In this document: in pieces, positions 1 to 62,575 of the stretch
How positions within the stretch are numbered: position 1 is the stretch's first letter
How the letters are laid out: every line of letters begins with the position of its first letter
Source: Squalus acanthias
Lineage: Eukaryota
Reading direction: 5' to 3'
DNA: 64,000 nt
Assembly (NCBI GenBank): GCA_030390025.1
Contig: CM059431.1
Coordinates: forward strand, 152,212,001 to 152,276,000
The notes under the pieces: generated by a model
Told to the model about the DNA's origin: nothing
Databases searched by the model: none
Seen by the model: only the letters and a program-made list of their open reading frames with translations
Translations under genes and position numbers: made by a program

Positions 1-272
1 CACAACATATCGCGACATAGCGGTCGAATGTGAAGGTGACGGTAAACCACATGAATATACTGATGACAGCACTATTCAAGTATATAAGCAACCTACAGAC
101 GGCAGTGTAACTGAGGAATGAATGTGGAAAGTGATATGTAAAAACGCGATACAGCAGCACATTGAAGAAGATGACCAGTAGAGCTGCTGTTGCCATGGCC
201 ACCATGTAGACCGAGATACCTTTGGAAAGACCGCATTTTCTCCGACGAGAATCACGATTGTCAGTAGGTTCG
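1..272 (-). pseudogene. GPR139-like GPCR pseudogene (copy A), 5' part of exon 2, runs off the window edge
   Basis: Colinear with 58790-59062. Same acceptor (tccctctttcttacag|CG). 1-nt deletion near 237-246 (10 nt between ccgcat and gagaatc versus 11 in the intact copy). Corrected frame reads ...MATAALLV...FTFDRYVAIC, with the TM2 Asp lost. Exon 1 is deleted. Confidence 0.85.
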
Positions 273-934
273 CTGTAAGAAAGAGGGACAAGCGGTCAGT
301 AACGGGCACACTCGGATAAATCTCAAACCAATTGTGGGGAAATGTGCAGATGGTTCACTATGCAAGTGGATTTTTAATTATATATGCGAGCGTTAACGAA
401 GAGATTTAAAAAAAAAAACATGGAACCCTCAATATAAAGCGACTGCAAATCCGCCTCTCTTCCCTGCAGACTTCAGACAGACGTCGCCAGATATTAAATA
501 TAATTTCACAACAATTACTGCAAAGATATGAATTCAAACGAAACATTCAGTTGCGAGAATATCATTCAATTTAGATTTAAACTCTGCGCTTTTTCCATGC
601 ACAATCGACCTCGGAGGGAGGGGGGGGGAAGCTTCTCGGCAACAGAGCGGGAGCTGGTGGAGACGCGAAGGTTCTTTGCAGCCGAGGGGAGTAGGGCAGC
701 TCCCTGAGCCGCAACTGTTGCTCAAAGTATCTTTCAAAATCCCCTGTTGGGTGTAGGTGGCGGCAGTTCGAGCAATTATCAACGTGAAATAAATAGGGTA
801 GAACTGTACAACTGATGTGATTACTATCCACAGGAAGAAGCACATCCTGTAGTTACTGGTACCTTGTAATCATTCGTGAATTCTTAACTCATCCATTAGA
901 TAATTAAATTTAGCTTTGTACTATGATGATAAAT

Positions 935-2270
935 GGAGGTGATCCTACTCTAACCTTACTGGTGGTGATCCGACTCTAATATTACTGGTGGTGAAACTGC
1001 ACTGTCATTACTGGTGGTGAATCTGCACTAACATTACTGGTGGTAACTGTACTCTGACAATACTGGTGATGATTATGCTCTAAAATTACTGGTGAGGACC
1101 CTACTCTAAAATTACTGGTGTTGACCCTACTCTAACATTACTGTTGAGGTCACTAATTAACGTTACTGGTGATGACTCTACTCTAACATTACTGGTGGTG
1201 CCGATGATCTAACATTACGGGTGGTGACTATACACTAACATTACTGGAGGTGGCCCTACTCTAACATTACTGATGATGACCCTACTCTAAATTTATTGGT
1301 GATGACAATACTCTGATATTACTGGTGGTGATAATACTCTAAAATTACTGATGGTTATCAAAAGCTAACATACTGGAGGTGACCATGCTGTAACATTACT
1401 AATGAAGACACTATTATAAAATTACATTAGTTAACATTACTGGTTGTGACTCTACTCCAACAATACTGGAGGTGACTCTACTTTAACATTACTGTTGAGG
1501 ACCCTATTCTAACATTAATGCTGGAGAGCATACTTTAAAATCACTGGATGTGACTCTGCTCTAACATTACTGGTGATGAGTCTAATCTAACTTAACTGGT
1601 GGAGGCAATACGCTAACCTTACTGGCAATGGTCCTACTCTAACACTACTGGTGGTGAACCGACACTAACATTACTGGTGGTGATCCTACTCTAGCATTAC
1701 TGGTGGCGAGTCTACTCTAACGTTATTGGTGCTGATTCTATGCTTACGTTAATGCTGGTGACCCTACTTTAACATTACTGTTGCTGTCCCCACTCTGACA
1801 TTTGTGATGGTGACGAGTCTACTCTAATAATACTGGTGGTGCTTCTAGTCTAACATTACTCGAGGTGACCCCGCTGCAACTTTACGAGTGGTGACTCTAC
1901 TCGAACATTACTGGTGGTGAAACTAATTTAACAATACCAGTGGTGATCATAATCTAACATTACTGGTGGTGACTCTATTCTAACATTACTGGTGGTGACT
2001 CGACTCGAACATTACTGGTGGTGACTCTACTCGAACATTACTGGTGGTGACTCTACTCTAACATTACTGGTGGTGACTCTACTCTAAAATTACTGGTGGT
2101 GACTCTACTCGAACATTACTGGTGGTGACTCTACTCTAACATTACTGGTGGTGAGTCTACTCTAACACTACCGGTGGTGACACTACTCTAACTTAACTGG
2201 TGGTGACTTTATTGTAACATTCCTTGTTATGAGCCTAATCTAAAATTACTGGAGTTGAATTTGTGCTAAC
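935..2270. repeat. 26-bp satellite, consensus GGTGGTGACTCTACTCTAACATTACT
   Basis: Tandem 26-bp period read directly; near-perfect units at about 1960-2200. Confidence 0.95.
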
Positions 2271-4769: not shown

Positions 4770-6980
4770 TGATAACATTACTGGTGGTGACCCTACTCTA
4801 ACATTTCTGGTGGTGAACCAACTCTGCCATTACTCGTAGTGTTCTTACTCTAACATTACTGGTGGAGATCATAACCTAACATCCTAAAATTTATCGTGAT
4901 GACTTTAATCTAACATTACTGGTGGTGACTCTGCTCTAACATTAGTGGTGAAGACCCTACTCCAACATTAATGGCGGTGACTCTACTCTAACATTATTGG
5001 TGGTGAAACTAATCTAACATTACTGGTGGTGACTCTACTCTGTGGCCCTACTCTAACATTACTGGTGGTGGCCCCACTCTAGCATTACTAGTGTTGACTC
5101 TACTCCAACATTACTGGTGGTGACTCTGCTCTAACATTACTGGTGGTGGCTCGACTGTAACATTACTGGTGGTGACCCTACTCTAGCATTACTAGTGGTG
5201 ACTCTAATGTAACATTACTGGTGGTGACCCTACACTAACATTACTGGTGGTGACTCTACTGTAACATTACTGGTGGTGGCCCTACTTTAGCATTACTGGT
5301 GGTGACTCTACTCTAACATTACTAGTGGTGAATCTACTCGAACATTACTGGTGGTGACTCTACTCTGTGTCTCTATTCTAACTTTACTGATGATGACCTT
5401 ACTCTAACATTATTGCTGATGACATTACTCTGATATTAATGATGGTGATCATATTCTAACATTACTTGTGGTATCCTCTAACATTACCGCTGGTGACCCT
5501 ACTGTAACATTACTGGTAGTGATCTTCAACTAACATTACTGTTGTTGACCCTACTGTAACAATACTGGTGATGCTTCTACTCTAACATTACTGAATTTGA
5601 CCCTGCTCTAACAATACTGGTGAGGACCCTGCTTAACATTATTGGTGGTGATTGTGCACTAATAATACTGGTGGTGATTCTTCTGTAACTTCACTGGTGA
5701 GGACACTACTTTAACATTACTGGTGGTGACTCTACTCTATCATTTCCGGTGGTGACCCGACTCCAACATAACTGGTGATGACCCGACGCTAACTTTAATG
5801 ATGGAGACCATAACCTAACATTACTGGTTGTGGCTCCGCTCTAACATTACTGATGATGAGTCTAGTCTAACTTAACTGGTGGAGATAATACGCTAACGCT
5901 GCTCGCGATGACCCTACTCTAACATTACTGATGGTGACCCTACACTAACATTACTGCTGGTGAACTTCCTTTAACTTTACTGGTGGAGACCGTATTCTAA
6001 CATTACTGGTTGTGAATCTGCTCTAACATTACTCATGATGAGTCTAGTCTAACTTAACTGTTGAAGACAATACGCTAACCTTGCTGGTGGTGATCCTGCT
6101 CTAGCACTATTGCTGTTGACTCTACATTAACCTTACTGGTGCCGACTCTGCCCTAACATTACTGGTGGTGACTCTGCTCTCACATTACTGATGGTGACCC
6201 TACATTGACATTACTGGTGCCGAGTCTACTCTAACATTACAGGTCTTGACTCGACTGTAACATTACTGTTGATCCTTTTACTCCTACATTACTGGTGCCC
6301 AGTCTACTCTCACATTAACGGTGCCGAGTCTACTCTAACATTACAGTTGGTAACACCACTCTAACATTACAGGTAGTGACTCTACTCTAACTTTAATGTT
6401 GCTGTCCCGAGTCTAAAATTACTGATGATGTCCCGACTCTAACATAATCGTGATGACACTACTCTGACATTAGTTGTGGTGTCGCTACTCTATAAATACC
6501 GGTGGTGCTTCTACTATAACATTAGTAGAGGTGACCCTGCTCTAACTTTACTCTGACAATACTCGAACATTACTGGTGGTGAATCTACCTTAAAATAATA
6601 GTAGTGATCATAATCTAACATTACTGGTGCTGACTCTAATCCAACATTACTGGTGTTGAATCTACTCTCACAATACTGGTGGTACTTCTCCTCTCACATT
6701 ACTGGTGAGGACCCTACTTAACATCACTGCTGGAATCTCCACTCTAACTTAACTGTTGGAGAATCTACTCTACAATAACCGGTGATGACCCTACTCAAAC
6801 ATTTCTGGTGATGACCATACTCTAACACTACTGCTTGTGAACCTACACGAACATTACTGCTGGTGATCCTACTCTCGCATTACTGCTGGTGACCCTACTT
6901 TAACTTTACTGGTGGAGACCATATTCTAACATTACTGGTTGTGAATCAGCTCCAACATTACTGGTGATGAGTCTAGTCTA
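4770..6980. repeat. 26-bp satellite
   Basis: Same monomer as 935-2270. Confidence 0.95.
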
Positions 6981-8226
6981 AACATAGAAGCATAGAAGGT
7001 AAGAGCAGGAGTAGGGCATTCGGCCCCTCGAGTCAATCCGCCATTCAATGCGATTATGGCTGATCATCCAAATTCAGTACCCTGTCCCTGTTTTCACCCC
7101 ATATCACTTGATCCCCTTAGCCTTAAGAAATATATCTAACTCCTTCTTGAATATATTTAATGAATTGGACTCAACTGTCTTCTGTGGTAGAGAATTCTAC
7201 AGGTTCACCACTCTCTGGGTGAAGAAATCCCTCCCCATCTCAGTACTAAATGGATTATCCCTTAACCTTAGACTGTGACCTCTGGTTCTAGACACCCCCA
7301 CCATCGGGAACATCCCTCCTGCATCTGCTCTGTCCAGTCCTGATAGAATTGTATAAGTTTCAATGAGATCCCCTCTCATTCATCTAAACTATAGCGAATA
7401 CAAGCCCAATCGACCCAGTCTCTATTCATACGTCATCCCTGCCATCCCAGGTATCCGTCTGGTTATTCTTCGCTGCACTCTCTCCATGGCAAAAACATCC
7501 TTCTTCAGATAAGACGACCAAAACTGCACACAATACTCAAGGAGTGGTCTCAAAAAGGCCCTGTACAACTGCAGCAAGACATCCTTGCTCCTGTACTCGA
7601 ATCCTCTCGCTATGAAGGCCAACATACCATTTGCTTTCTTCACCGCCTGCTGCACCTGCAAGCTTACCTTCAGCGACTGTTGCACAAGGACACCCAGGTA
7701 TCGTGGCACTTCTCCTTCTCCCAATCTATTGCCATTCAGATAATATTCTGCCTTTCTGTTTTTGACGCCAAAGCGGATAACTTCGCATTTATACACGTTA
7801 TATTGCATCTGCAACGCTTCTGCCCACTCACCCAACCTGTCCAAATCATCCTGGACTTTCTCAGAATCCCCCTCGGAGCATACATGCCCACCCAGCTTTG
7901 TGTCATCTGCAAACTTGGAGATATTACATTTAGTTCCCTTATCCAGATCATTATTGTATAATGTGAATAGCTGGGGTCCAAGGACCGAACCCTGCGGTAC
8001 TCCACTAGTCACTGCCTGCAACTCAGAAAAAAAACACATTAATTCCTACTTTCTGCTTTCTGTCCGCCAACCAGTTATCTATCCAAGTCAATACCTTGCC
8101 CGCAATCCCATGTGCCTTAACTTTACACGCTACTCTCTTATGCGGGACCTTATCGAAAGCCTTTTGAAAGTCCAAATACACCACATCTACTGGTTGTCCC
8201 TTATCTATTTTCCCAGTTACATCCTC
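6981..8226 (-). mobile_element. 5'-truncated CR1 LINE inserted in satellite
   Basis: ORF 7422..8039 [14 protein letters not shown]...KFADDTKLGG, plus RGDLIETY. Tail aacatagaagcatagaa at 6981. Confidence 0.92.
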
Positions 8227-8227
8227 C

Positions 8228-8600
8228 TCTACTCTACTCTACTGGTGACCCTGCTCTAACATTATTGGTGACGGGTCTATTCGAACATTACCAGTGGTGA
8301 GTCAACTCGAACATTACTGGAGGTGACTCTACTCTAACATTACTGTTGGTGACCCTGCTTTAACATTAGTGGTGAAGACCTTACTCCAACATTACTGGTG
8401 GTGACGCTACTACCCCATTACTGGTGGTGAGTCAACTTGAACATTACTGGAGGTGACTCAACTCTAACATTACTGGTGGCGACCCTACATTACCATTACT
8501 GTTGAAGACCCTAATTAACATCACTGGTGGTGATTCAACTCGAACATTACTGTTGGTGACTCTACTCAAAAAATACTGGAGTTGATTCTACTCTAACATT
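8228..8600. repeat. 26-bp satellite
   Basis: Same monomer. Confidence 0.9.
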
Positions 8601-9297
8601 GGGCCAGAAATTTGGTTTTCCGGCTTCCTGCTGGTGCAAGCATCGCACGCATACTTACCTACCGGGCCTGCAGTTGTGTTTTGGGACCACGACAACTTCG
8701 GGTTCTGGGCCTCCTCCAGCTGCCGGCGCGCAGTGCTTGCATGTCCCAGAGAAGGCAGTCAGTTCGAAGCGGGATCACGTGGGCCATGGAGAGCCAATCC
8801 TAGCAGGGCATTTTCAACAACAACTAAACTTCAAATAAATGAAAAAAAATCACATTTTTAAAATAACTATAAGTTAAATAAATTAAATACTTTAAAAAAA
8901 AATTAAATTTAAAAAAAAATTAAAATACTCTTTCACGTTGCTAAAAATAAACTTACCTTTCTTTAAAATATCTAAAAAAAATAAACCTGTTGATAAAGTT
9001 TTAAAATTGTAATTAATTAACCACTTACCTTGTAAAAACGGGTCTTGCGCCTCCTTTTTCAAAGCGCAGCTTCTTCCATACTTACCCTCCGGGTAAAAGC
9101 TGAAAAAAACCTGAAGTTCGCTGCATGCGTGCAGCCTCTCCCATGCACCTGGTTCTCCTCTGAACCCCTCCCTTCCCGAGACCGGAAGTTCCAGTTACCC
9201 GCGCATGCGCAGTGCATGAAGGAAAACGGCACTTCGAGTGGCGTTGCGGTTGAGTACACAGTGCGTACTCACCCGACAAGCGCCGAATTTATGTGCC
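8601..9297. mobile_element. Non-autonomous DNA transposon (MITE), PIF/Harbinger-like
   Basis: Imperfect TIRs GGGCCAGAAATTTGG / rc GGCACATAAATTCGG. 3-bp TSD ATT at 8598-8600 and 9298-9300. Satellite resumes in register. AT-rich core. Confidence 0.7.
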
Positions 9298-10270
9298 ATT
9301 ATTGGTGAGGACTGTACATAACATTGCTGGTGTTGCTTCTACTCTACTGTACAGGTGATGATCAACCTTCTCCAACATTACCAGTAGCGACTCTACTCTA
9401 ACCTTACTGGTAGTGCCACCGCTCTAAAATTACTGGTGGTGATTTACTCTAATATTATTGTTGGTGACTCTACTGTATCATTACTGGTGATGTCACTGAT
9501 CTAACATTATTGGTGCTGTCACTAATCTAACATTACTGGCGGTGCCTCTACTCTAACATTACTGGTGGTGATGCTATTCTTACATTACTGGTGGAGACTC
9601 TACTCTAACATTGGTAGTGTTGACCCTACTGTAACATTACTGGTGGTGTCTCTACTCTAACATTACTGGTTGTGACCCTAATCTAATATTAGTGGTGATG
9701 ATTCTACTCTAACATTACTGGTGGTGACTCTACTCTAAGATTACTGGTGGTGACTCTAATCTAATATTAATGGTGGCGACTCTACTCTAACATTACTGAT
9801 GATGACCCTACAGTTACATTATTGGTGATTATATTACTCTGATATTAATAGTGGTGATCATACTCTAACATTACTGGTGGTATACTGTAACATTACCGAA
9901 GGTGGTCCTACTCTAACAATACTGATGTTGATCAAAAACTATCATTACTGGAGGTGACACAACTCTAACAATACTGGTGTTGCTTCTAATCTAACATTAT
10001 TGGAGGTGACCCTTCTCTAACATTACTGGTTAAGACCCTACTCTTAAATTACTGGTGTTGACTCTACTCTAACTTTATTGGTGGAGACAATCCTCTAACA
10101 TTACAGGCTGTGACTCCACTCAAACATTACTGTTGATGAGTCTAGTCTAACTTAACTGGTGGAGACAATACACTAACCTTACTCTCGATGACCTTACCCC
10201 ACACTAATGGGGGTGACCCTACACTAACATTACAGTGGTGATCCTACTCTAGCATTACTAGTGGTGACTC
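9298..10270. repeat. 26-bp satellite
   Basis: Same monomer. Confidence 0.95.
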
Positions 10271-11149: not shown

Positions 11150-14100
11150 TGATTGTATTCCAACATTACTGCTGGTGACCCGTCTCTCTCAATACTGGTG
11201 GTGCTCATACGATTCCATTACTGGTGATGAATCTAGTTTACCATTTCTGTTGATTACACTGGTCTAACATTAATTGTGTTGATACTACTTCAACATTACT
11301 GGTGATGAACCTGCTCTAACATTAATGGTGGTGACCTGCTATAACATTAAATATGGTGATCCTACTCAAACATTGCTGGTAGTGACCCTGCTTTATCGTT
11401 ACTGGTGGTGACATTACTCTAAATGGTGTGTTAGTGACTCTACTCTAACAGTACTGGCGATGACTCTACCCTAATTTTACTAATTTTGACTCCAATCTAA
11501 CGTTAGTTTTGGTGTCTCTACTCTAACATTACAATTGAATACGCCAATCTAACATTACTTGTGGTGAATCTACTCTAACATTACTGGTAGTGACCTTCCT
11601 GTAACATATCTGGTGATGACCCTACTCTAACATTACTGGTGGTGACACTACTCTAACATTACTGTTGATGACACTGCTCTAATATTACTGGCCATGGCTC
11701 CACTCTAACATTTCTGGTGATGACCCTACTTTAACATTACTGATGATGACCCTACTTTATCATTACCGTTGTTGATCATAAACTGACATTTTACTTGATG
11801 ACCCTACTCTAACTTTATTTTTGGTCATTACTGTCTAACATTACTTGTGGTGTCTAAACTATATCATTACTGTTGGTGACCATACTCTATCATTACCAGT
11901 GGTGACCGTACACTAATATTATTGGTGGTTACCCTAATCTAACATTACTCATAGTCTCTCTATTGTAGCATTACTTGTCATGACGCTACACAGACATTAC
12001 TTCTGTTTACCCTACTCTAACACTAATTGTGATGACACTACTCCAGCATTACTGGTAATTACCGAGCAGTAGCATTACTGGTGGTGCTTCTACTCTTACG
12101 TTACTGGTGTCGAGTTTACTCGAACATTACTGGTGGTGAATCTACTAGAATATTAATGATGGTGAGTCTACTCGAACATTACTCGTGATGACTCTACTCT
12201 AACATCATTGGTGGTGAAACTACTCTAACATTACTGTTGGTGTCCCAACTCTAAAATTACTGATGATGTCCCCAGTCTATCATTATTGGTGATGACACTA
12301 CACTGACATTAGTTCTGGTGACCCTACTCTAACAATACTGGTGGTGCTTCTACTCTAACATTATTGTTGGTGACCGTGCTCTAACTTTAATAGTGTTGAA
12401 TGTACTCGAATATTACTGGTGGTGAACCTACTTTAACAATACTGGTGGTGATAATAATCTAATTTTGGTGGTGGTGCTTCTTCTCTCACCTTACCAGTGA
12501 GGACCCTACTCTAACATTACTGGTGATGACCCTATTTTAACATTACAGTTGGTGGCAGTACTCTTACATTACTGGGTATGACCCTACTCTTAACTTAATG
12601 GTGGTGAATCGACTTTAACAATACTGGTGGTGATCATAATCTATTGTTGCTGGTGGTGCTTCTCCTCTCACATTACTGGTGAGGACCCTACTCTAACATT
12701 ACTGGTGGTGACCCTATTTTAACATTACTGTTGGTGGCTGTACTCTAACATTACTGGTTATGACCCTACTCTTAAATTAATGGTGGTGAACCTACTCTAG
12801 AATTACTGGTTGAGACCGTACTATAACATTACTGATGATGACCCTATTCTAACATTACTGGTGATGACACTACTCTACAATTACTGGTGGTGCTTCCACT
12901 CTGACATTACTGGAGTTGACCCTGCTCTAACTTTACTAGTGGTGACTATACACGAACATTACTGGTGGTGAACCTACTTTAAGAATACTGGTGGGGATCA
13001 TAATCTAACATTTCTGTTGGTGAATCTACTCTAACTTTACTGGAATTGAATCTATTCTCACAATACTGGTGGTGCTTCTCTTCTCACATTACTGGTGACG
13101 ACCCTACTTAACATCACTGCTGTTGACCCTGCTCCAGCATTACTGATGAGGACCCTACTGCAACATTACTGGTGGTAACCCTGTTCTATCATTACTGGTG
13201 GTGACTGTACTCTAACATTACAAGTTATGAACGTACTCTTAAATTACTAGTGATGAATCTACTCTAAAATTACTGTTGGTGACCATGCTATAATATTACG
13301 GGTTGTGAGCCTACTCTAACATTAATGATGGTGATCCTACTCTAACATTACTGCCGATGACTCTACCCTAACTTTTCTGACAGTGATTCTGCTCTAACAT
13401 TACTGATGATAACTTTACTTTGACATTATGGTGTTGACTCTTCTCTACCATTACTTGTGGTGACCTTACTCTAACATTGCTGGTGGTGACCCGACTCTAA
13501 CTTTATTGGTGCCGACCGAACTCTATTATTATTGGTGTAGAGCCTACTCTAACATTACTGGTGATATCTCATCAGTAACATTACTTGAAGTGACTGTTCT
13601 CTAAAATTAATGTGGGAAACCATACCCTAAAATTACTGGTGGTGAACTTACTCGAACATTACTATTGGTGACCCTGCGCTAATATTACTGGTGGTGAACC
13701 TACTCTAACATTACTGGTGATGACGGTACTCCAACCTTACTGGTGAGGAGCCTCCTCTGACATTACTGCTGGTGACTGTATTCTACGATTACTGTTAGTG
13801 ACCAGTCTCTATCAATAATAGTGTTGAACACGCGATACCATTACTCGTGATAACTTTACTCTAACATTACATGTGATCACCCTTCTCCAACATTACCAGT
13901 TGTGATTCTACTCTACGGTGCTGACACCGTTCGATAATTACTGGTGGTGACCCCACTCTATCATTATTGATTATGATCAAGCTGTAATATTTCTAGTGGT
14001 GACCCTACTCTATCATGACTGATGGTGATCATACACTAACGTTATTGCAGTGGCTCTAAACTAATATAACTGGTGGTGAACGTACTCTATCTTTACTGGT

Positions 14101-14750
14101 GGTGGCCCGAGTCTAACATTACTGATGATGACATTAATCTAACGTTGCTGGTGGTGACCCTACTCTAGCATTATTAGTGGTGGCCTTACTCTAACATTAC
14201 TTGTGGTGACCCTACTCTAACATTACTTGTGTTGACCCTACACTAACATTACTGGTGGTGACGCTGCTCTAACATTACTTGTGGTGACACTATTCTAACT
14301 TTACTGGTGGTGACCCTACTCTAACAATACAGCTGGTGACCGTCCTCTAACATTAGTGTTGGCGACTCTACTCTAACATTACTGGTGGTGACTCCACACT
14401 AATATTACAGGTGGGGACTCTACTCTAACTTCAATGGTGGTGACTCTACTCTATCATTACTGGTGGTGATCCTCCTCTAACATTACTGGTGACGACTCTA
14501 CTCTAACGTTAATGCGGATGACACTTCAACAGCATTTCTGATACTTACCGTACTGCAACCTTACTGGTGGAGAGCTTTCTCTGGTTTTATTTCATGTGAC
14601 TCCACTGTAATGTTTTTCTGGAGATGATCCTTCTTTAACATTACTGGGTGTGCCAGTATACTAGCAATATGTGTGGAGACTGAACGCTGCATCTTCGTCT
14701 GGTGAACGCACTCTACCATTATTGATAATGACGCTGCGATAACATTACTT
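11150..14750. repeat. 26-bp satellite, increasingly degenerate toward the right end
   Basis: Same monomer. Confidence 0.95.
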
Positions 14751-36168: not shown

Positions 36169-37284
36169 ATGGTTTTTGTGTAATATGGTTGCATGGATAG
36201 AGGATTGGTTAACGGACAGAAAACAGCGAGTAGGAAAATAAATCTTTTTCAGGTCGGCAGGCTGTACCAACTGGGATACGGCAAGGTTCAGTGCTAGAGC
36301 ATCAGATACTTGAAATCTATGTTGTTGACCTAGATGAAGGGACTGAGTTGAATGCATCCAAGTTAACTGACGATACAAAACTAGGTGGGATAGTAAACTG
36401 TGAGGGGAACACAACTAATCTGCAGAGGGATATAGATAGACTGAGTGAGTGGGCAGTAAGTTGGCAGATGAAGGATAATGTCGGGAAATGTGATGTTATT
36501 CACTTATGTAGGAGGAATAGAAAACCATAATATTTTGTAAATGGTGAGAATCTTTGAAATGTTGGTGTTCAGAGAGATTTGGGTGTTCTCGCGCAAGAAA
36601 CACAGGAAGCTAGCATGCAGGTACAGCAAGCAATAAGGGAGGCAAATGGCATTTTCGTCTCTATAGCAAGGGGTTTGGAGTAAAGAGTAAAGAAGTCTTG
36701 CTACAATTGTACAGTGCCTTGGGAGTACTGTGCACAGTTTTGGTCTCCTTAACTAAGGAAAGATATACTTGCCTTGGAGGCGGTGAAACAAGAGGTTCAC
36801 TAGATTGATTCCTGGGATGAGAGGGCTGTCCTATGATGCGAGATTGTGTAGAATGGGCCTATACTCTCTGGAGTTTAGAAGAATGAGAGTTGATCTCATT
36901 GAAACACACAAGATTCAGAAGGGGATTGACCGGGAAGATGCTGAGAGGTTGTTTCCCCTGATTGGAGTGTCAAGAACTAGGGGGCGTAGTCTCAGGATAA
37001 GGGTAGGCCATTTAGGACTAAGACGAGGAGGAATTTCTTCACTCAGACGGTTGTGAATCTTTGGAATTCTCTGCCCCAGAGGGCTGTGATTGCCGCGTCT
37101 TTGAATATATTAATGGCTGAAATAGATAGATTTTTGGTCTCTAGGGGAATCAAGGATATGGAGATAGGTCGGGAAACCGGAGTTGAGGTCGATGATCAGC
37201 CATGATCTTGTTGAATGGCGGAGCAGGCTCGAGGGGCCATAGGGCCTACTCCTGTTCTCATTTATTGTGTTTCTATGTTCTTAT
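36169..37284 (+). mobile_element. CR1 RT and 3' end; begins at 34713-34825 before the insertion
   Basis: KLTDDTKLGG and GLYSLEFRRMR motifs; tail ttctatgttcttatg. Confidence 0.88.
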
Positions 37285-37903
37285 GGTATTCCCGGTGTAT
37301 TGCAATGACACAATAGTTACCTTTCCCTCGGGATGCAGATTATGTGGGGCAAAGCTTTCCTACAAATATTTTCATGTTGCGGTTCCATTGTATCCCATCC
37401 CAATCAAATCCACATGCAGGTGCTGCGTGTTCAACCTCGTCATAAGGGCAGATGAATGTATCCCGAGCTTGAGCACACCCGGTAAGATCTGGAGCCCCCC
37501 ATGTGGTCCCATCCACATGGGTCACATACAGCGGGGTTTCGTCATACCTTATTAAGCATACTGCTACATTCTCAACGCGGAACAGAGGATTTGGGTTTGC
37601 CTTTTCATGCAGAATGGGATAATACAATACCATCCCTAATAAGGTGATGTCCTTCTGTTCCTGCAAATGGCGGTAATGTTTCATGGTACACCTGTACCAA
37701 CTCCCTGACTTTACACATATTCATGGTAAATTGTGGTGTACTTTGCCATCAGCTTTCGATCAGTCACCCACAAGAGGAGTTCTCCTGAGCAGGTTTTCAC
37801 GGGCTTGTTCCACTAACCAAATTCCATACATTACACAAACATTATTTCGTACGGCCTCACTAGAGGCATTCAGATTCTCCTTTAAAATTGTGTTTATCTT
37901 TTA
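37285..37903 (-). pseudogene. Frameshifted retroviral env-like (fusion glycoprotein ectodomain) remnant, spuma/loki-like
   Basis: Manual translation across frameshifts: KINTILKENLNASSEAVRNNVCVMYGIWLVEQARENL / GELLLWVTD / MCKVRELVQVY / LLGMVLYYPIL..LFRVENVAV..PDLTGC..DTFICP..PACG / GNYCV. Motif order recalls foamy-virus TM; recognised by eye only. Confidence 0.55.
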
Positions 37904-41407: not shown

Positions 41408-42237
41408 TTAGGATAGGAAGCTCGGGTTTGATCTTCCTATTTTGTTAACCAAGTTCAGAATCAATGCCCAGGGAGATTTCACTAATCTCACCAACTCTTC
41501 CCTGAATCTGGTTTGGGTTGCTGCATAAATGCACGTGTTAGTACAGGAGCTCAAATACATGAGCATAAATCCGGTTGCAGAGGCGATGTATGCAGGAGAT
41601 GTATAATCGATTCGATCAAAAATGATCAGGGAGTTAATTGAATAACTAACGATACATGTCAGCCACAAAACCAAAAAACTGCCTGTTACACTGAACAGTA
41701 AAATGTGGGATTTCCTCCGGTTCGCCATCTCTGTATCGCTCTGATTCTCACTGCTGTGACCCCGGAGTCTCCTGCGGGCTCTACTGGACACTAAAAAACT
41801 TCTGATTGTCAAACAATTAAACAGTAATATCAAAGCGAAAGGAAGCCCTACAATCAAAAAACTTTCTAACCAGATGAATGCTGTACCAACAGACGTGGTA
41901 AAAAAGCCAATTTTCAAGCGGCAACCCCAGTGAATATTGTTAATTATTCGTTCAGTTTCATATGCAAACGAATAGGGGATATTATCTAAACAGAGCAGAA
42001 CAGAAACCGTTGTTATGACGGCGGCCGCCGTTCTCACTGTGCAATATTTCGTTTTAAACTTCTCAAAACTTATCGCGACATAGCGGTCAAATGTGAAGGT
42101 GACGGTAAAACACACGGACATATCGAGGGCAGCAGCATTCAAGCATATACGGAACCTACAGACGCAGTGTAGCTGAATAATGAATGTGGAAAGTGATATG
42201 TCAATACACGGTACAGCAGCACATTGACCATCATGAC
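41408..42237 (-). pseudogene. GPR139-like GPCR pseudogene (copy B)
   Basis: TM3-TM7 open (FTFDRYVAI, SCTNTCIY). 1-nt deletion near 42164 versus the intact copy. Homology stops at 42237, where CR1 sequence begins, so TM1, part of TM2 and exon 1 are missing. Confidence 0.88.
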
Positions 42238-58160: not shown

Positions 58161-59062
58161 TCATATTTTGTTATACAATTTCCGAATCAATGTCCAGGGA
58201 GATTTCACTAATCTCACCAGCTCTTCCCTGAATTTGGTTTGGGTCGCTGCATAAATGCACGTGTTTGTACAGGAGCTCAAATACATGAGCATAAATCCGG
58301 TTACAGAGGCGATGTATGCAGGAGATGTATAATCGATTCGGTCATAAATGACCAGGGAGTCAATTAAAAAACTAACACTAGCTGTCATCCACATCAATAA
58401 AATACTGCCTGATACACTGAACAGTAAAATTATGGATTTCCTACGGTTCGCCATCTCTGGATCGCTCTGATTCTCACTGCAGTGACCCCGGATTCTCCTG
58501 CGGGCTCTGCTGGCAGCTAGAATCCGGCTGACTGTCAAACAATTGAACAGTAATATCAAAGCAAAAGGCAGCCATGGAGTTAAAAGAGTTTCTATCCAGA
58601 TGAATGCTGTACCTGCAGGCGAGGTAAAAAAACTCAATTTCAAGCGGCAACCCCAGTGAAAATTGTTAATTATTCGTTCAGTTTCATATGCAAACGAATA
58701 GGGGATATTGTCTAAACAGAGCAGAACTGAGATCGTTGTTATGATGGCGGCCGCAGTTCTCACTGTGCAATATTTCGTTTTAAACTTCTCACAACATATC
58801 GCGACATAGCGGTCAAATGTGAAGGAGATAGTAAACCACACGGATATATCGAGGACAGCAGCATTCAAGTATACAAGCAACCTGCAGACGGCAGTGTAAC
58901 TGAGGAATGAATGTGGAAAGTGATATGTAAAAATGCGGTACAGCAGCACATTGATGATCATGACCAGTAGATCTGCTGTTGCCATGGCCACCATGTAGAC
59001 CGAGATACATTTGGAAAGACCGCATGTTCCTCTGGAGAGAATCACGATTGTCAGTAGGTTCG
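58161..59062 (-). CDS. GPR139/GPR142-like class A GPCR (copy C), exon 2 of 2; spliced product 323 aa
   Basis: Open frame with ANLLTIVIL, MATADLLV, TM3 Cys, FTFDRYVAIC, ECL2 HWGC, WLPF and SCTNTCIY. Pyrimidine tract plus AG acceptor at 59063-59080. Phase matches exon 1. Confidence 0.9.
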
Positions 59063-59973
59063 CTGTAAGAAAGAGGGACAAGCGGTCAGTAACGGGCACA
59101 CTCGGATAAATCTCACACCATATTGTGGGGAAATGTGCTGATCAGTCCCTGTGCAGACGGATTTTTAATCATATAGGCGAGCGTTAACAAAGAGATTTTT
59201 AAAATAAAACAATGTACACTCAATATAGAGGGACTGAAAATCCGCCGTCATTCCTTGCAGACTTCAGACAGACATCGCCAAATATTAAATATAATTTCAC
59301 AGCAATTAATTTAAAGATATGAATTCAAACGAAACATTCAGTTGCGAGAACATCATTGAATTTAATTCGAAGTTATGCGCCTTTTAAAAAATCTACAATC
59401 GCCCTGTGGTGGGGTGGGGGACGGCGGTGGGGGTGTCGGAGTGGGGGGGGGGTGTCTGGGAGGGGTTGGTGGTGGGGCGGGGTGGGGGGGTGGTGTTGCA
59501 AGGTAACAGAGCGGGAGCTAGTGGAGACGCGAATGTTCTTTGCAGCCGAGGGGAGTGGAGCAGCTCCTGAGCGGTAATTATTGCTGAAAGTATCTTTCAA
59601 AGTCCCCTGTTGGATGGAGGTGGCTGCAGTTCGAGAAATTATCAACGTAAAATAAACAGAGTACAAGTGTACAACTGATGTGATTACTATCCACAAGAAG
59701 AAACACATCCTGTAGTGATCTCTATACTGTTGGAGGGGCCGGAGAATGTCAGCTTCGCCCTCCCTCAGTACAGGGAGGAAAGGCGAGCGCCCGGCACCCA
59801 CGAGCTACCGACCAGCCTCACCAGCCGAGTTGGCTATTTCGATTCCCACTGACATTCAACAACTTATCACAATGGAAAAGTGACTCTGCAATGAGGACAT
59901 TCTGGGAATCATTACATAATCATTAACACTGAGAGAGTCTGCAGCCATCAGACAACAGTATTCACTGACTTAC

Positions 59974-60043
59974 CGGGAATGCCAAAGGCTGCGAGAGCAG
60001 GATAGAAAATGATGCTGACCATTTGAACTGTTGGCAGTAACAT
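59974..60043 (-). CDS. GPR139-like GPCR (copy C), exon 1: MLLPTVQMVSIIFYPALAAFGIP + G
   Basis: ATG at 60043; 70 nt ending CCCG|gtaagt. Joins exon 2 as GIP-A-NLLTIVIL and completes TM1. 911-nt intron. Confidence 0.88.
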
Positions 60044-60121
60044 TTTTTAAGAAGGATATGTGACTTCTGTCCGGCAGTATGGTTAGCGTCAGAGTTTACA
60101 TGCGATCCATAAACACTGTCA

Positions 60122-60173
60122 TTTTATAGAAAACTCGGTGCCCCGTTGAGAATATTAGTCACAAGACAATTGG
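60122..60173 (-). promoter_or_regulatory. Candidate core promoter: TATAAAA (60128-60122) and CCAAT (60173-60169)
   Basis: Canonical motifs in the correct orientation, about 80 and 125 nt upstream of the ATG. Confidence 0.55.
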
Positions 60174-60454
60174 TGTTAGTTACAGTCACTTAACCAACAA
60201 GGCAAGATTTTCCGCTTCAGTGTGCCTGGGACACCAAATTGAATATTTTACAAATCAGTTCATGAAACTCCATGAATTCAAATAAATGAACGGGAACTCA
60301 TAGCAGATGGAATGTACTGGGCGCAAGCACCGTGATCCCCAAAGGGAACAGCCCACACAGGCACTGCGTTCGGTTACTGCTCCCTCGCAATAATTGGTGA
60401 AATCTTAACTCTCCATTAGACAGTTAAATTTAGCTTTGCACCATGATGAAAAAT

Positions 60455-62575
60455 GTAGTTGACCCAACTCTAACCTTACTGGTGGTGACGCAACTGTAAC
60501 CTTACTGGTGATGACGCTACTCTGAACTTAGTGGTGGTGACTCTACTCTAACCTTCCTGGTGTTGATCCTACTTTAACATTACTGCTGGTGGCTCTACTC
60601 TAACATTACTGGTGTTGAGTCTGCTCTAACATTACTGGTGATGACCCTACTCTAACGTTATTGGTGGTCACTCTACTCTAAAATTACTGGTGATGACTCT
60701 GCTTTTACGTTACCGGTGATGACGCTACTCTATCATTACTGGTGGTAATTCCACTCTATCCTTACTGGTGGTGACTCTACTCCAACATTTCTGATGGTGA
60801 GCCTACTTTAACATAACTGTTGATCACTCTACTCTTACAGTATTGCTGATGACACTATTCTGGCCTTACTGGTGGTGATCATAAACTAACATTACTGCGG
60901 CTGACTCTACTCTGGCATTACTGGTGGTGATCATAAACTAACATTACTGGTGGCGACGCTACTCCAGCATTACTAGTGATGAACCTTCATTAACATTACT
61001 GGTGGCGCTTCTATTCTAACGTTACTGGTCGTGGATCATCCGTAACATTATTGGTGGTGATTCTACTCTTGCATTACTGGTATTGACCAAAGTCTAACAT
61101 TAATGCTGGTGACTCTACTCTAATATTACTAGTGGTGACCCTACTCTGACATTTCTGTTGGTGTCCCTACTCTAACATTACTGATGATGACCCTGCTCAG
61201 ACATTATTGGTGATGACACTACTCTGACATTACAGGTGCTGACCGTTCTCTAACAATACTGGTGGTGATCATAATCTAACAGTATTGGTGGTGACACTCC
61301 TCTAACATTACTGGTGTTGAATCTACCCCAACAATACTGGTGGTGCTTCTACTCTATGATTACTGGTGAGGGGCCTACTTAACATCACTGCTGGTGACAC
61401 CACTCTAACTTTAAAGATGAGGACTCAATACTAGCATTACCGGTGTTGACTCGACCCTAACATTACTGGTGATAACCCTACTCTAACTTTAATGGTGGAG
61501 ACCATATTCTAATATTACTGGTTGTGACTCTGCTCTGGTGTTGAGTCTAGTCCAACGTAACTGGTGGAGACAATACGCTAACCTTACTGGCGATGACACT
61601 ACTCTAACGCTACTGGTGGTGACCCTACTTTAACATGACTGGTGGTGCTTGTACCCTAACATTACTGATGGTGACTCTACTCTAACACTACTTGTGGTGA
61701 CCCTACTTTAACATGACTGGTGGTGCTTCTACTCTAACGTTACTGGTGGTGACCCAACTGTAACATTACTGTTGATCTCCCTACTCTAACATTACTGATG
61801 ATGACCCGACTCAAACGTTATTGTTGATAACTCTACTCTAACAATACTGCTGGTGCTTCTATTCTAACGTTGCTAGAGGTTACCCAACTCTAACTTTATT
61901 AGTGGTGACTATAATAGAACATTACTGGTGGTGAACCTACTTTTACAATACTTGTGGTGTTCATAATCTAACATTACTGGTGTTGACTCTACACTAACAT
62001 TACTGGTGTTGAATATACACTAACAATACTGGTGGTGCTTCTACTCTAAAATTACTGTTGAGGACCCTACTTAACTTCACTTCTGGTGACTCCACTCTAA
62101 CATTACTGGTGAGGACTCAATACTATCATTGCCGGTGGTGACACGATTCTAACATTACTGGTGATGACCCGACACTAACTTTAATGGTGGAGACCATATT
62201 CTAAAATTACTGTTGTGACACAGCTCTGTGATGAGTCTAGTCCAACTTAACTGGTGGAGACAATACGCTAACCTAAATGGCGATGACACGACTCTAGCCT
62301 TATTAGTGGTGATGCTACTTTAACATGACTGGTGATGCTTCTACTCTAACATAACTGGTGGTGACACTACTCTAACATTACTGATGGTGACTCTATTACA
62401 ATATTACTGGTGGTGACTCTACGATAACATTATTGATGTTGACTCTGCGCTAACATTACGGGTGGTGACTCTACTGTAACATTACTGGGGGAACACAAAT
62501 CTAACATTACTGGTGGTGACTCTACTCTAACTTCACTGTTGATGACCCTAAACTAAAATTACTGGTGGTGAATTT
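60455..62575. repeat. 26-bp satellite, paralogous to 935-2270
   Basis: Same monomer and same flanks on both sides. Confidence 0.95.

Follow-up and report, generated by a model that had tools for sequence, protein, structure and literature searches.

The window analysed here, i.e. the whole stretch of 64,000 nucleotides at C7:152.21-152.28 Mb of the 3.71-Gb Squalus acanthias assembly, holds a receptor gene together with broken paralogues, and thereby raises the question of what this receptor is, how many of its kind the genome contains and what they could serve. A preliminary description had taken the gene for an intact, two-exon relative of GPR139 in a tandemly expanded, fast-turnover family that behaves like a chemosensory or immune repertoire.

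The gene and its surroundings

All parts of the proposed two-exon model could be reproduced. The gene lies on the minus strand at 58161-60043, with its ATG at 60043, a donor GT at 59973 and an acceptor AG at 59063, and the spliced frame of 972 nt encodes 323 amino acids with a terminal stop only (Table 1). Across the splice junction the protein reads GIP-A/NLLT (the slash marks the junction), and the N-terminus offered by the open reading frame track, PVTDRLSLFLT, is indeed intronic, as had been claimed, for it is the 3' end of the 911-nt intron. The same 23-codon exon is found about 0.8-0.9 kb upstream in seven of the nine closest paralogue loci, and by this sequence comparison the exon 1 call is therefore more than chance; it was not seen within 1.5 kb at the paralogue loci L004 and L010, and the same type of exon 1 peptide opens many annotated homologues of sharks and rays. 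We infer splicing of the window gene from its sequence and from the conservation among paralogues, and its transcription from the intact frame, the splice sites and the promoter. No AATAAA occurs within 1.1 kb downstream.

Table 1. Features of the intact receptor gene, its promoter and its neighbours (positions within the window)
Feature	Position	Strand	Remarks
24-bp promoter element	60176..60199	-	TGTTKGTTMARTGACTGTAAYTAA; ~47-51 nt upstream of TATA; common to divergent subfamilies
CCAAT box	60169..60173	-	At -130; kept in 9/9 aligned local-subfamily promoters
TATA box	60123..60128	-	TATAAA, 85 nt upstream of ATG; kept in 9/9 aligned local-subfamily promoters
Coding exon 1	59974..60043	-	70 nt (23 codons + 1 nt); encodes the N-terminus, which is very short, and TM1 as far as its middle
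Intron	59063..59973	-	Phase 1, GT-AG, 911 nt, inside TM1
Coding exon 2	58161..59062	-	Remainder of the 7-TM receptor; stop at 58161-58163
26-bp minisatellite array	60460..62571	.	Directly upstream of the intact gene's promoter
Dead paralogue B	41438..42237	-	5'-truncated; LINE-like sequence abuts; frameshift near 42163
Dead paralogue C	1..950	-	Acceptor at 272; exon 2 continues beyond the window edge

Three runs from the same species, which are only presumed to be RNA, contained no exon junction at the window gene and only short paralogue contigs. In the case of the paralogue L050, their summed depth was ~15-500 over exon 2 and 0-45 in non-repeat intron bins, and contigs ran across the intron-exon boundary and within the intron, much as low-coverage DNA would give. 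In one of these runs a single contig links the beginning of exon 2 with the region of exon 1, with 29 letters on its short side and ends that are not GT-AG.

The encoded protein matches the Pfam family 7tm_1 (E=1.3e-18, 67.8 bits versus a cut-off of 30.5) and a predicted model of exon 2 only shows seven long helices (mean pLDDT 71), by which sequence and model it is classed as a class A (rhodopsin-like) GPCR. The DRY and NTCIY motifs singled out in the preliminary description are both present, but neither has the significance that might be attached to it: DRY is an exception within the family, where 58 of 59 sequences have DRF, and NTCIY is no novelty because human GPR139 likewise lacks NPxxY (it has NFFLY).

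The two dead paralogues reported in the window turned out to be real, both being broken by 5' loss and frameshifts. What remains of paralogue B starts ~98 nt into exon 2, its promoter and exon 1 being gone; in paralogue C a deletion has removed promoter and exon 1, and the reading frame of exon 2 shifts at about codon 9. The 26-bp minisatellite, of which there are further arrays at 934-2252, 4896-6981, 8243-8600, 9297-10270 and 11263-14511, adjoins the promoter side of both the intact gene and paralogue C; the 3' side of another subfamily is flanked by a different short-period repeat. The neighbouring paralogue L062, ~15 kb to the right of the window on C7, has an intact promoter element, exon 1 and an open exon 2; at L062:5293-5300 TT replaces the GT donor, and L009 looks similar. 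Most other open reading frames across the window look like decayed LINE fragments, which we take to be of the CR1 type; two short ones at 37196-37720 do not have this character.

Relationship to GPR139, GPR142 and their low-copy relatives

The preliminary description had also assigned the receptor to the GPR139/GPR142 clade. A short GPR139 motif has one match in the genome, on C18; the gene there shares 88% identity with human GPR139. GPR142, at 57% identity, is also present once. The window protein is 19-22% identical to these two (~21% to GPR139), and orthology with GPR139 was rejected on account of this low identity and of the genome's own GPR139 elsewhere. Conclusions on phylogeny were drawn from a carefully made tree of 34 rows, with 45 rows of a 79-row quick-search tree left out; the smaller tree has two outgroups and contains long branches. 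In it, GPR139 and GPR142 form one clade (100/99) and the expanded family another (99/99), to which a salamander protein is sister (100/100). The family and the salamander protein join a conserved low-copy lineage at 92/91 and then a second low-copy lineage at 99/98, and amphioxus and other invertebrate proteins are placed at only 84/70 and 80/54. A tree that holds the family together with GPR139/142 has a p-AU of 0.0025, and membership of that clade was rejected, the family falling into a separate lineage; this is the placement that had been named beforehand as speaking against the assignment, and the replaced pocket residues described below point the same way.

Activation of GPR139 requires F3.33, H5.43, W6.48 and N7.38, and R6.51 lines the modelled site (PMC5430874). 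At F3.33, H5.43, W6.48, R6.51 and N7.38 the window protein has A, E, W, A and F, so that four of the five are replaced (as mapped on an alignment of ~21% identity); the genome's GPR139 and GPR142 keep all five. Because the family stands outside the GPR139/142 clade and does not keep the Trp/Phe pocket, an amino-acid ligand cannot be transferred to it from GPR139.

At a wider level the family does appear to be GPR139-related, as judged by the phase-1 intron before the TM1 Asn and by GPR139 being the best characterised match. Mammalian GPR139 has a two-exon structure, and in four single-copy relatives (GPR139, GPR142 and two others) an AG stands two bases before the same TM1 Asn codon, the donor being seen for one of them; the shared acceptor is consistent with one ancestral intron. 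When the family profile is compared with the PDB, GPR139 comes out best (E=1.1e-16 versus 6e-12 for the next); for the window protein alone it ranks below the ghrelin, motilin and PrRP receptors.

The first low-copy lineage includes sharks, sturgeon, teleosts, coelacanth, amphibians and reptiles; birds and mammals are missing from those of the 120 listed rows that carry a name. The spiny dogfish loci L029 (C17:37413200-37415300) and L028 (C9:120525700-120527800) are two conserved low-copy GPR139-related orphan receptors, the former with coelacanth, sturgeon, teleost, amphibian and reptile relatives and the latter with one anchovy and one caecilian protein. Two relatives in the L029 lineage are annotated as TMEM183A isoforms, a name that seems to point to a neighbouring gene. 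The two lineages probably correspond to GPR210A and GPR210B, which Rinne et al. (2019, PMC6504862) set alongside GPR139/142 as additional orphan receptors from fishes and coelacanth; the text of that paper contains neither 'shark' nor 'cartilaginous' and describes no expansion. Salamander sister sequences come from Pleurodeles, Ambystoma and Lissotriton (P0209, P0269 and P0272). No bony-vertebrate sequence other than this salamander protein was found directly beside the expanded family, and its gene may, from its position in the tree, be an unexpanded orthologue of the shark genes.

Copy number, promoters and constraint across the family

Counting of the genomic copies, as the preliminary description had proposed, gave far more than one window suggests. 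Exact degenerate coding motifs for TM3 and TM7 have 2,302 and 1,948 genomic matches, respectively, and their reversed controls none; by comparison, V1R has 5 matches in the same assembly, in which GPR139 and GPR142 are single genes. A protein search of the genome returned 4,764 first-look candidates, 131 of which were scored; all of these are at least 66% identical, 18 have an internal stop and many lie in C7:137-153.6 Mb. As a sample we took the first 100 of the 2,302 sites, which are all on the large contigs C1-C7 and hence not random. The TM7 motif is also present in 60 of these 100, which implies roughly 3,200 copies if the two motifs decay independently. By profile coverage, 58 sampled copies have a full open exon 2 and 42 do not; extrapolated, about 1,300 of the 2,302 would be open, a number that is an upper bound for the working genes among them because only exon 2 was scored and L062 has an open exon 2 yet has lost its GT donor. 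The 58 open copies and the window protein fall into 36 groups at 90% identity and 13 at 70%. The tandem expansion and fast turnover that had been proposed are thus borne out by these counts, and, as far as the genome sequence tells, this is a large clustered family with birth and death as in chemoreceptor repertoires.

Many copies lie on small contigs. For one of two unplaced copies that were checked the best twin is 98% identical, and the other has five 99% twins, three on its own contig and two on other small contigs; some copies may be redundant in the assembly. Wholesale assembly duplication was rejected, given that GPR139 and GPR142 are single, that the best paralogue of the window gene is 96% identical and that the best twin of one unplaced copy reaches only 98%. 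Regular arrays of near-identical copies at 25-50 kb spacing occur at C1:98.88-99.68 Mb and C6:85.09-85.34 Mb; the pairs compared in them have 96-99% protein identity, in most with a higher dN in the outer than in the inner half, and the arrays look like very recent amplification.

A protein-cluster search yielded 1,566 clusters at E<=1e-10. All 120 that were listed are elasmobranch (sharks and rays), most at 56-75% identity, and most carry the automatic RefSeq/UniRef name 'probable G-protein coupled receptor 139'; matches in the ESM Atlas were likewise auto-named clusters only. Of 16 divergent representatives of the family, 15 proved to come from chondrichthyans, skates and Callorhinchus among them. 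Since members are present in sharks, rays, skates and Callorhinchus, the family is, by this distribution of sequences, older than the split between chimaeras and elasmobranchs, and subfamilies are common to the shark and ray lineages in the 79-row tree.

The TATA and CCAAT boxes claimed for the window gene were recovered on the minus strand, starting at 60128 and 60173; the CCAAT box is not part of the promoters examined in other subfamilies. The 24-bp element upstream of them has 778 exact matches in the genome (reversed control 0), the 100 listed ones lying almost all inside receptor clusters, and one match in the window, against none in 100 shuffles. It was first seen in promoters that had not been chosen for it and occurs at eight of the nine such family loci with a known exon 1; it is absent at L067 and upstream of the single-copy relative L058. 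The identity of the element across groups is partly circular, many sites having been picked by the pattern itself, but further upstream the sequences of six groups agree at only 28% of positions. Among the 47 loci examined, TATAA stands at the expected distance in 23 and a recognisable exon 1 within 330 nt in 29. At some genes (L066:5716-5835, L052:707-781 and L174) the element forms two or three tandem repeats with a period of 48-51 nt.

The first seven bases of the element vary only within the forkhead consensus. A homeodomain-like TAATT/G site follows it in 28 of the 47 promoters (a looser pattern, chosen post hoc), and strict O/E sites are found in none of the 47. NF-kB-like 10-mers, again a post hoc pattern, stand just upstream of TATA in 7 of the 47 promoters and 3 of 11 groups, and are absent from the window gene. 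In the mouse, OR promoters show an enrichment of both O/E and homeodomain sites (PMC3247239).

Across 36 non-redundant paralogues the eight inner segments have mean entropies of 0.4-0.9 bits and the nine outer ones of 1.5-2.5 bits, several pocket positions reaching 2.4-3.4 bits. A set of 22 close, disjoint pairs gives a dN/dS of 0.43 overall, 0.32 in the inner (cytoplasmic) and 0.52 in the outer parts, with several inner segments at 0.15-0.23 among recent pairs; by both measures the inner face is conserved and the side turned to ligands variable. PMC5430874 supplied 17 pocket positions, fixed before the comparison; their dN of 0.094 is about twice the 0.044 of the other positions (Fisher p=4e-9, with codons treated as independent). 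Pooled over the pocket, dN/dS is not above 1 (0.90 when dS is taken from the whole gene, 0.72 when it is taken from the pocket itself), and that of the window gene against local paralogues is 0.39-0.75. These values describe a family that works, its signalling face constrained and its pocket free or diversifying, and relaxed constraint would fit the dN/dS of the pocket as well as positive selection does. The combination of a diversified predicted pocket and a conserved cytoplasmic face is, at the level of coding sequence, that of a chemoreceptor repertoire.

Possible roles and comparison with known systems

We consider it an evenly balanced proposition that the window gene is one copy of a chondrichthyan family of more than 2,000 copies that likely serves as a chemical-sensing (chemosensory-type) repertoire. 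Duplication of a small cassette would spawn receptor copies, and by drift or selection the pocket of each would come to suit other small molecules or peptides; all copies would be coupled to one G-protein pathway by their conserved inner face, and the shared promoter would drive them in one cell class, most likely in a sensory epithelium (chemosensory cells of nose, taste or skin, or the gut). More tentatively, chondrichthyans could possess a chemoreceptor family of their own from a GPR139-related orphan lineage that is low-copy in bony vertebrates, co-regulated by one 24-bp element. A minimal N-terminus is typical of odorant-type receptors, and the very short one of the window protein was counted in favour of the chemosensory reading, together with the size and turnover of the family, its asymmetry between inner and outer face, the shared promoter with its homeodomain-like site and the wide distribution among chondrichthyans. 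Counted against it were the zero of 47 promoters with strict O/E sites, the 7 of 47 with NF-kB-like sites, a pocket dN/dS not above 1, the overestimate of intact genes by open exon 2, the possible redundancy of some copies in the assembly and the expression in the catshark nose, which is dominated by V2Rs with no missing class reported by a study that probed only the four known families (Syed et al., PMC10116579). The catshark top-50 olfactory list in PMC11979771 contains no GPCR at all and is thus non-discriminating.

The same birth-and-death pattern and variable outer face would also suit an immune or barrier repertoire on leukocytes, mast-like or epithelial cells that senses microbial or damage-derived peptides, for which the formyl-peptide receptors and MRGPRs are the model. 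Known vertebrate immune GPCR families are far smaller, and the kB-like site, which in three groups would agree with such a role, is missing from most promoters, including that of the window gene. The wider clade has been related to peptide receptors, GPR139 itself being linked to those of invertebrates in a review (PMC12208981), and MAS1-related receptors are reported absent in cartilaginous fishes, which would leave the niche open (PMC8455134); we regard this immune role as a minor possibility, yet as the main rival of the chemosensory reading. Somewhat less probable is a mostly neutral amplification of satellite- and LINE-rich segmental duplications, under which most copies would not work, the rest would overlap in their ligands and the outer face would simply be less constrained. 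About 40% of the sampled copies are broken, near-identical copies form tandem runs as on C1 and C6, satellite arrays adjoin genes, and neither the pocket dN/dS nor that of the window gene against its local paralogues exceeds 1, all of which such amplification would produce; it accounts poorly, however, for the overall dN/dS and the still lower values of several inner segments among recent pairs, for the 13 or more subfamilies (70% identity) among 59 sampled sequences, for a promoter element kept while the flanks diverged and for subfamilies common to shark and ray lineages.

Thousands of diversified copies and many pseudogenes would be unexpected if each receptor recognised a fixed endogenous peptide, as it would in endocrine or neural signalling within the body or, in reproduction, in the recognition of gametes and pheromone peptides; although the characterised receptors closest to the family are those of brain and gut and the neuropeptide receptors of invertebrates, and the single-copy sister lineages are conserved across vertebrates, we think such a role improbable. 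That the family consists of GPR139 co-orthologues sensing L-Trp and L-Phe, as the database names, the best PDB match of the family profile and the intron position might suggest, is scarcely tenable and as orthology largely refuted: true GPR139 and GPR142 are present as single genes, the AU test and the replacement of F3.33, H5.43, R6.51 and N7.38 speak against it, and the window protein by itself ranks three other receptors above GPR139.

Searches of the literature on GPR139/GPR210 in sharks and on shark GPCR expansion, mostly without subscription papers and supplements, found no paper on the family. Cartilaginous fishes are described as having the smallest olfactory repertoire of vertebrates (mean 43.8 genes, range 20-62; PMC10869828) and a paucity of GPCRs (PMC8455134), and yet a keen sense of smell (PMC10116579). 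More than 2,000 family copies in one genome contradict the claim of paucity whatever their function, and the puzzle of keen smell with few receptors becomes directly testable with existing shark RNA data; the 24-bp element, in turn, offers a handle on the co-regulation of so many genes. If the chemosensory reading is true, some species would have about a thousand working genes or more, a number to rival the odorant repertoires of mammals, and it would no longer hold that a few dozen receptors account for the sense of smell in sharks.

Compared with known systems, the family is like the L-Trp/L-Phe receptors GPR139 and GPR142 (PDB 7VUG, 9M42) in the position and phase of the TM1 acceptor, the missing Pro at the NPxxY position, the retained W6.48, the short N-terminus and the best solved-structure match of its profile; it differs from them in that it is ~20% identical, forms a separate clade, does not keep the pocket and comprises more than 2,000 fast-turnover copies, whereas they are single conserved genes. 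GPR210A and GPR210B are likewise orphan subtypes near GPR139/142, of which the expanded family is a further branch with the salamander gene as its nearest outside relative. The RefSeq/UniRef entries from sharks, rays and chimaera that are called 'probable G-protein coupled receptor 139' belong to the same family, under names that are machine-given only. With the OR, TAAR, V1R, V2R, T2R and FPR/MRGPR repertoires it has in common the tandem clusters, birth and death with many pseudogenes, a variable pocket over a conserved signalling face and a shared proximal promoter motif; unlike these vertebrate repertoires, the shark family has no strict O/E site in the promoters examined, carries a coding intron in TM1 and stems from another GPCR lineage.
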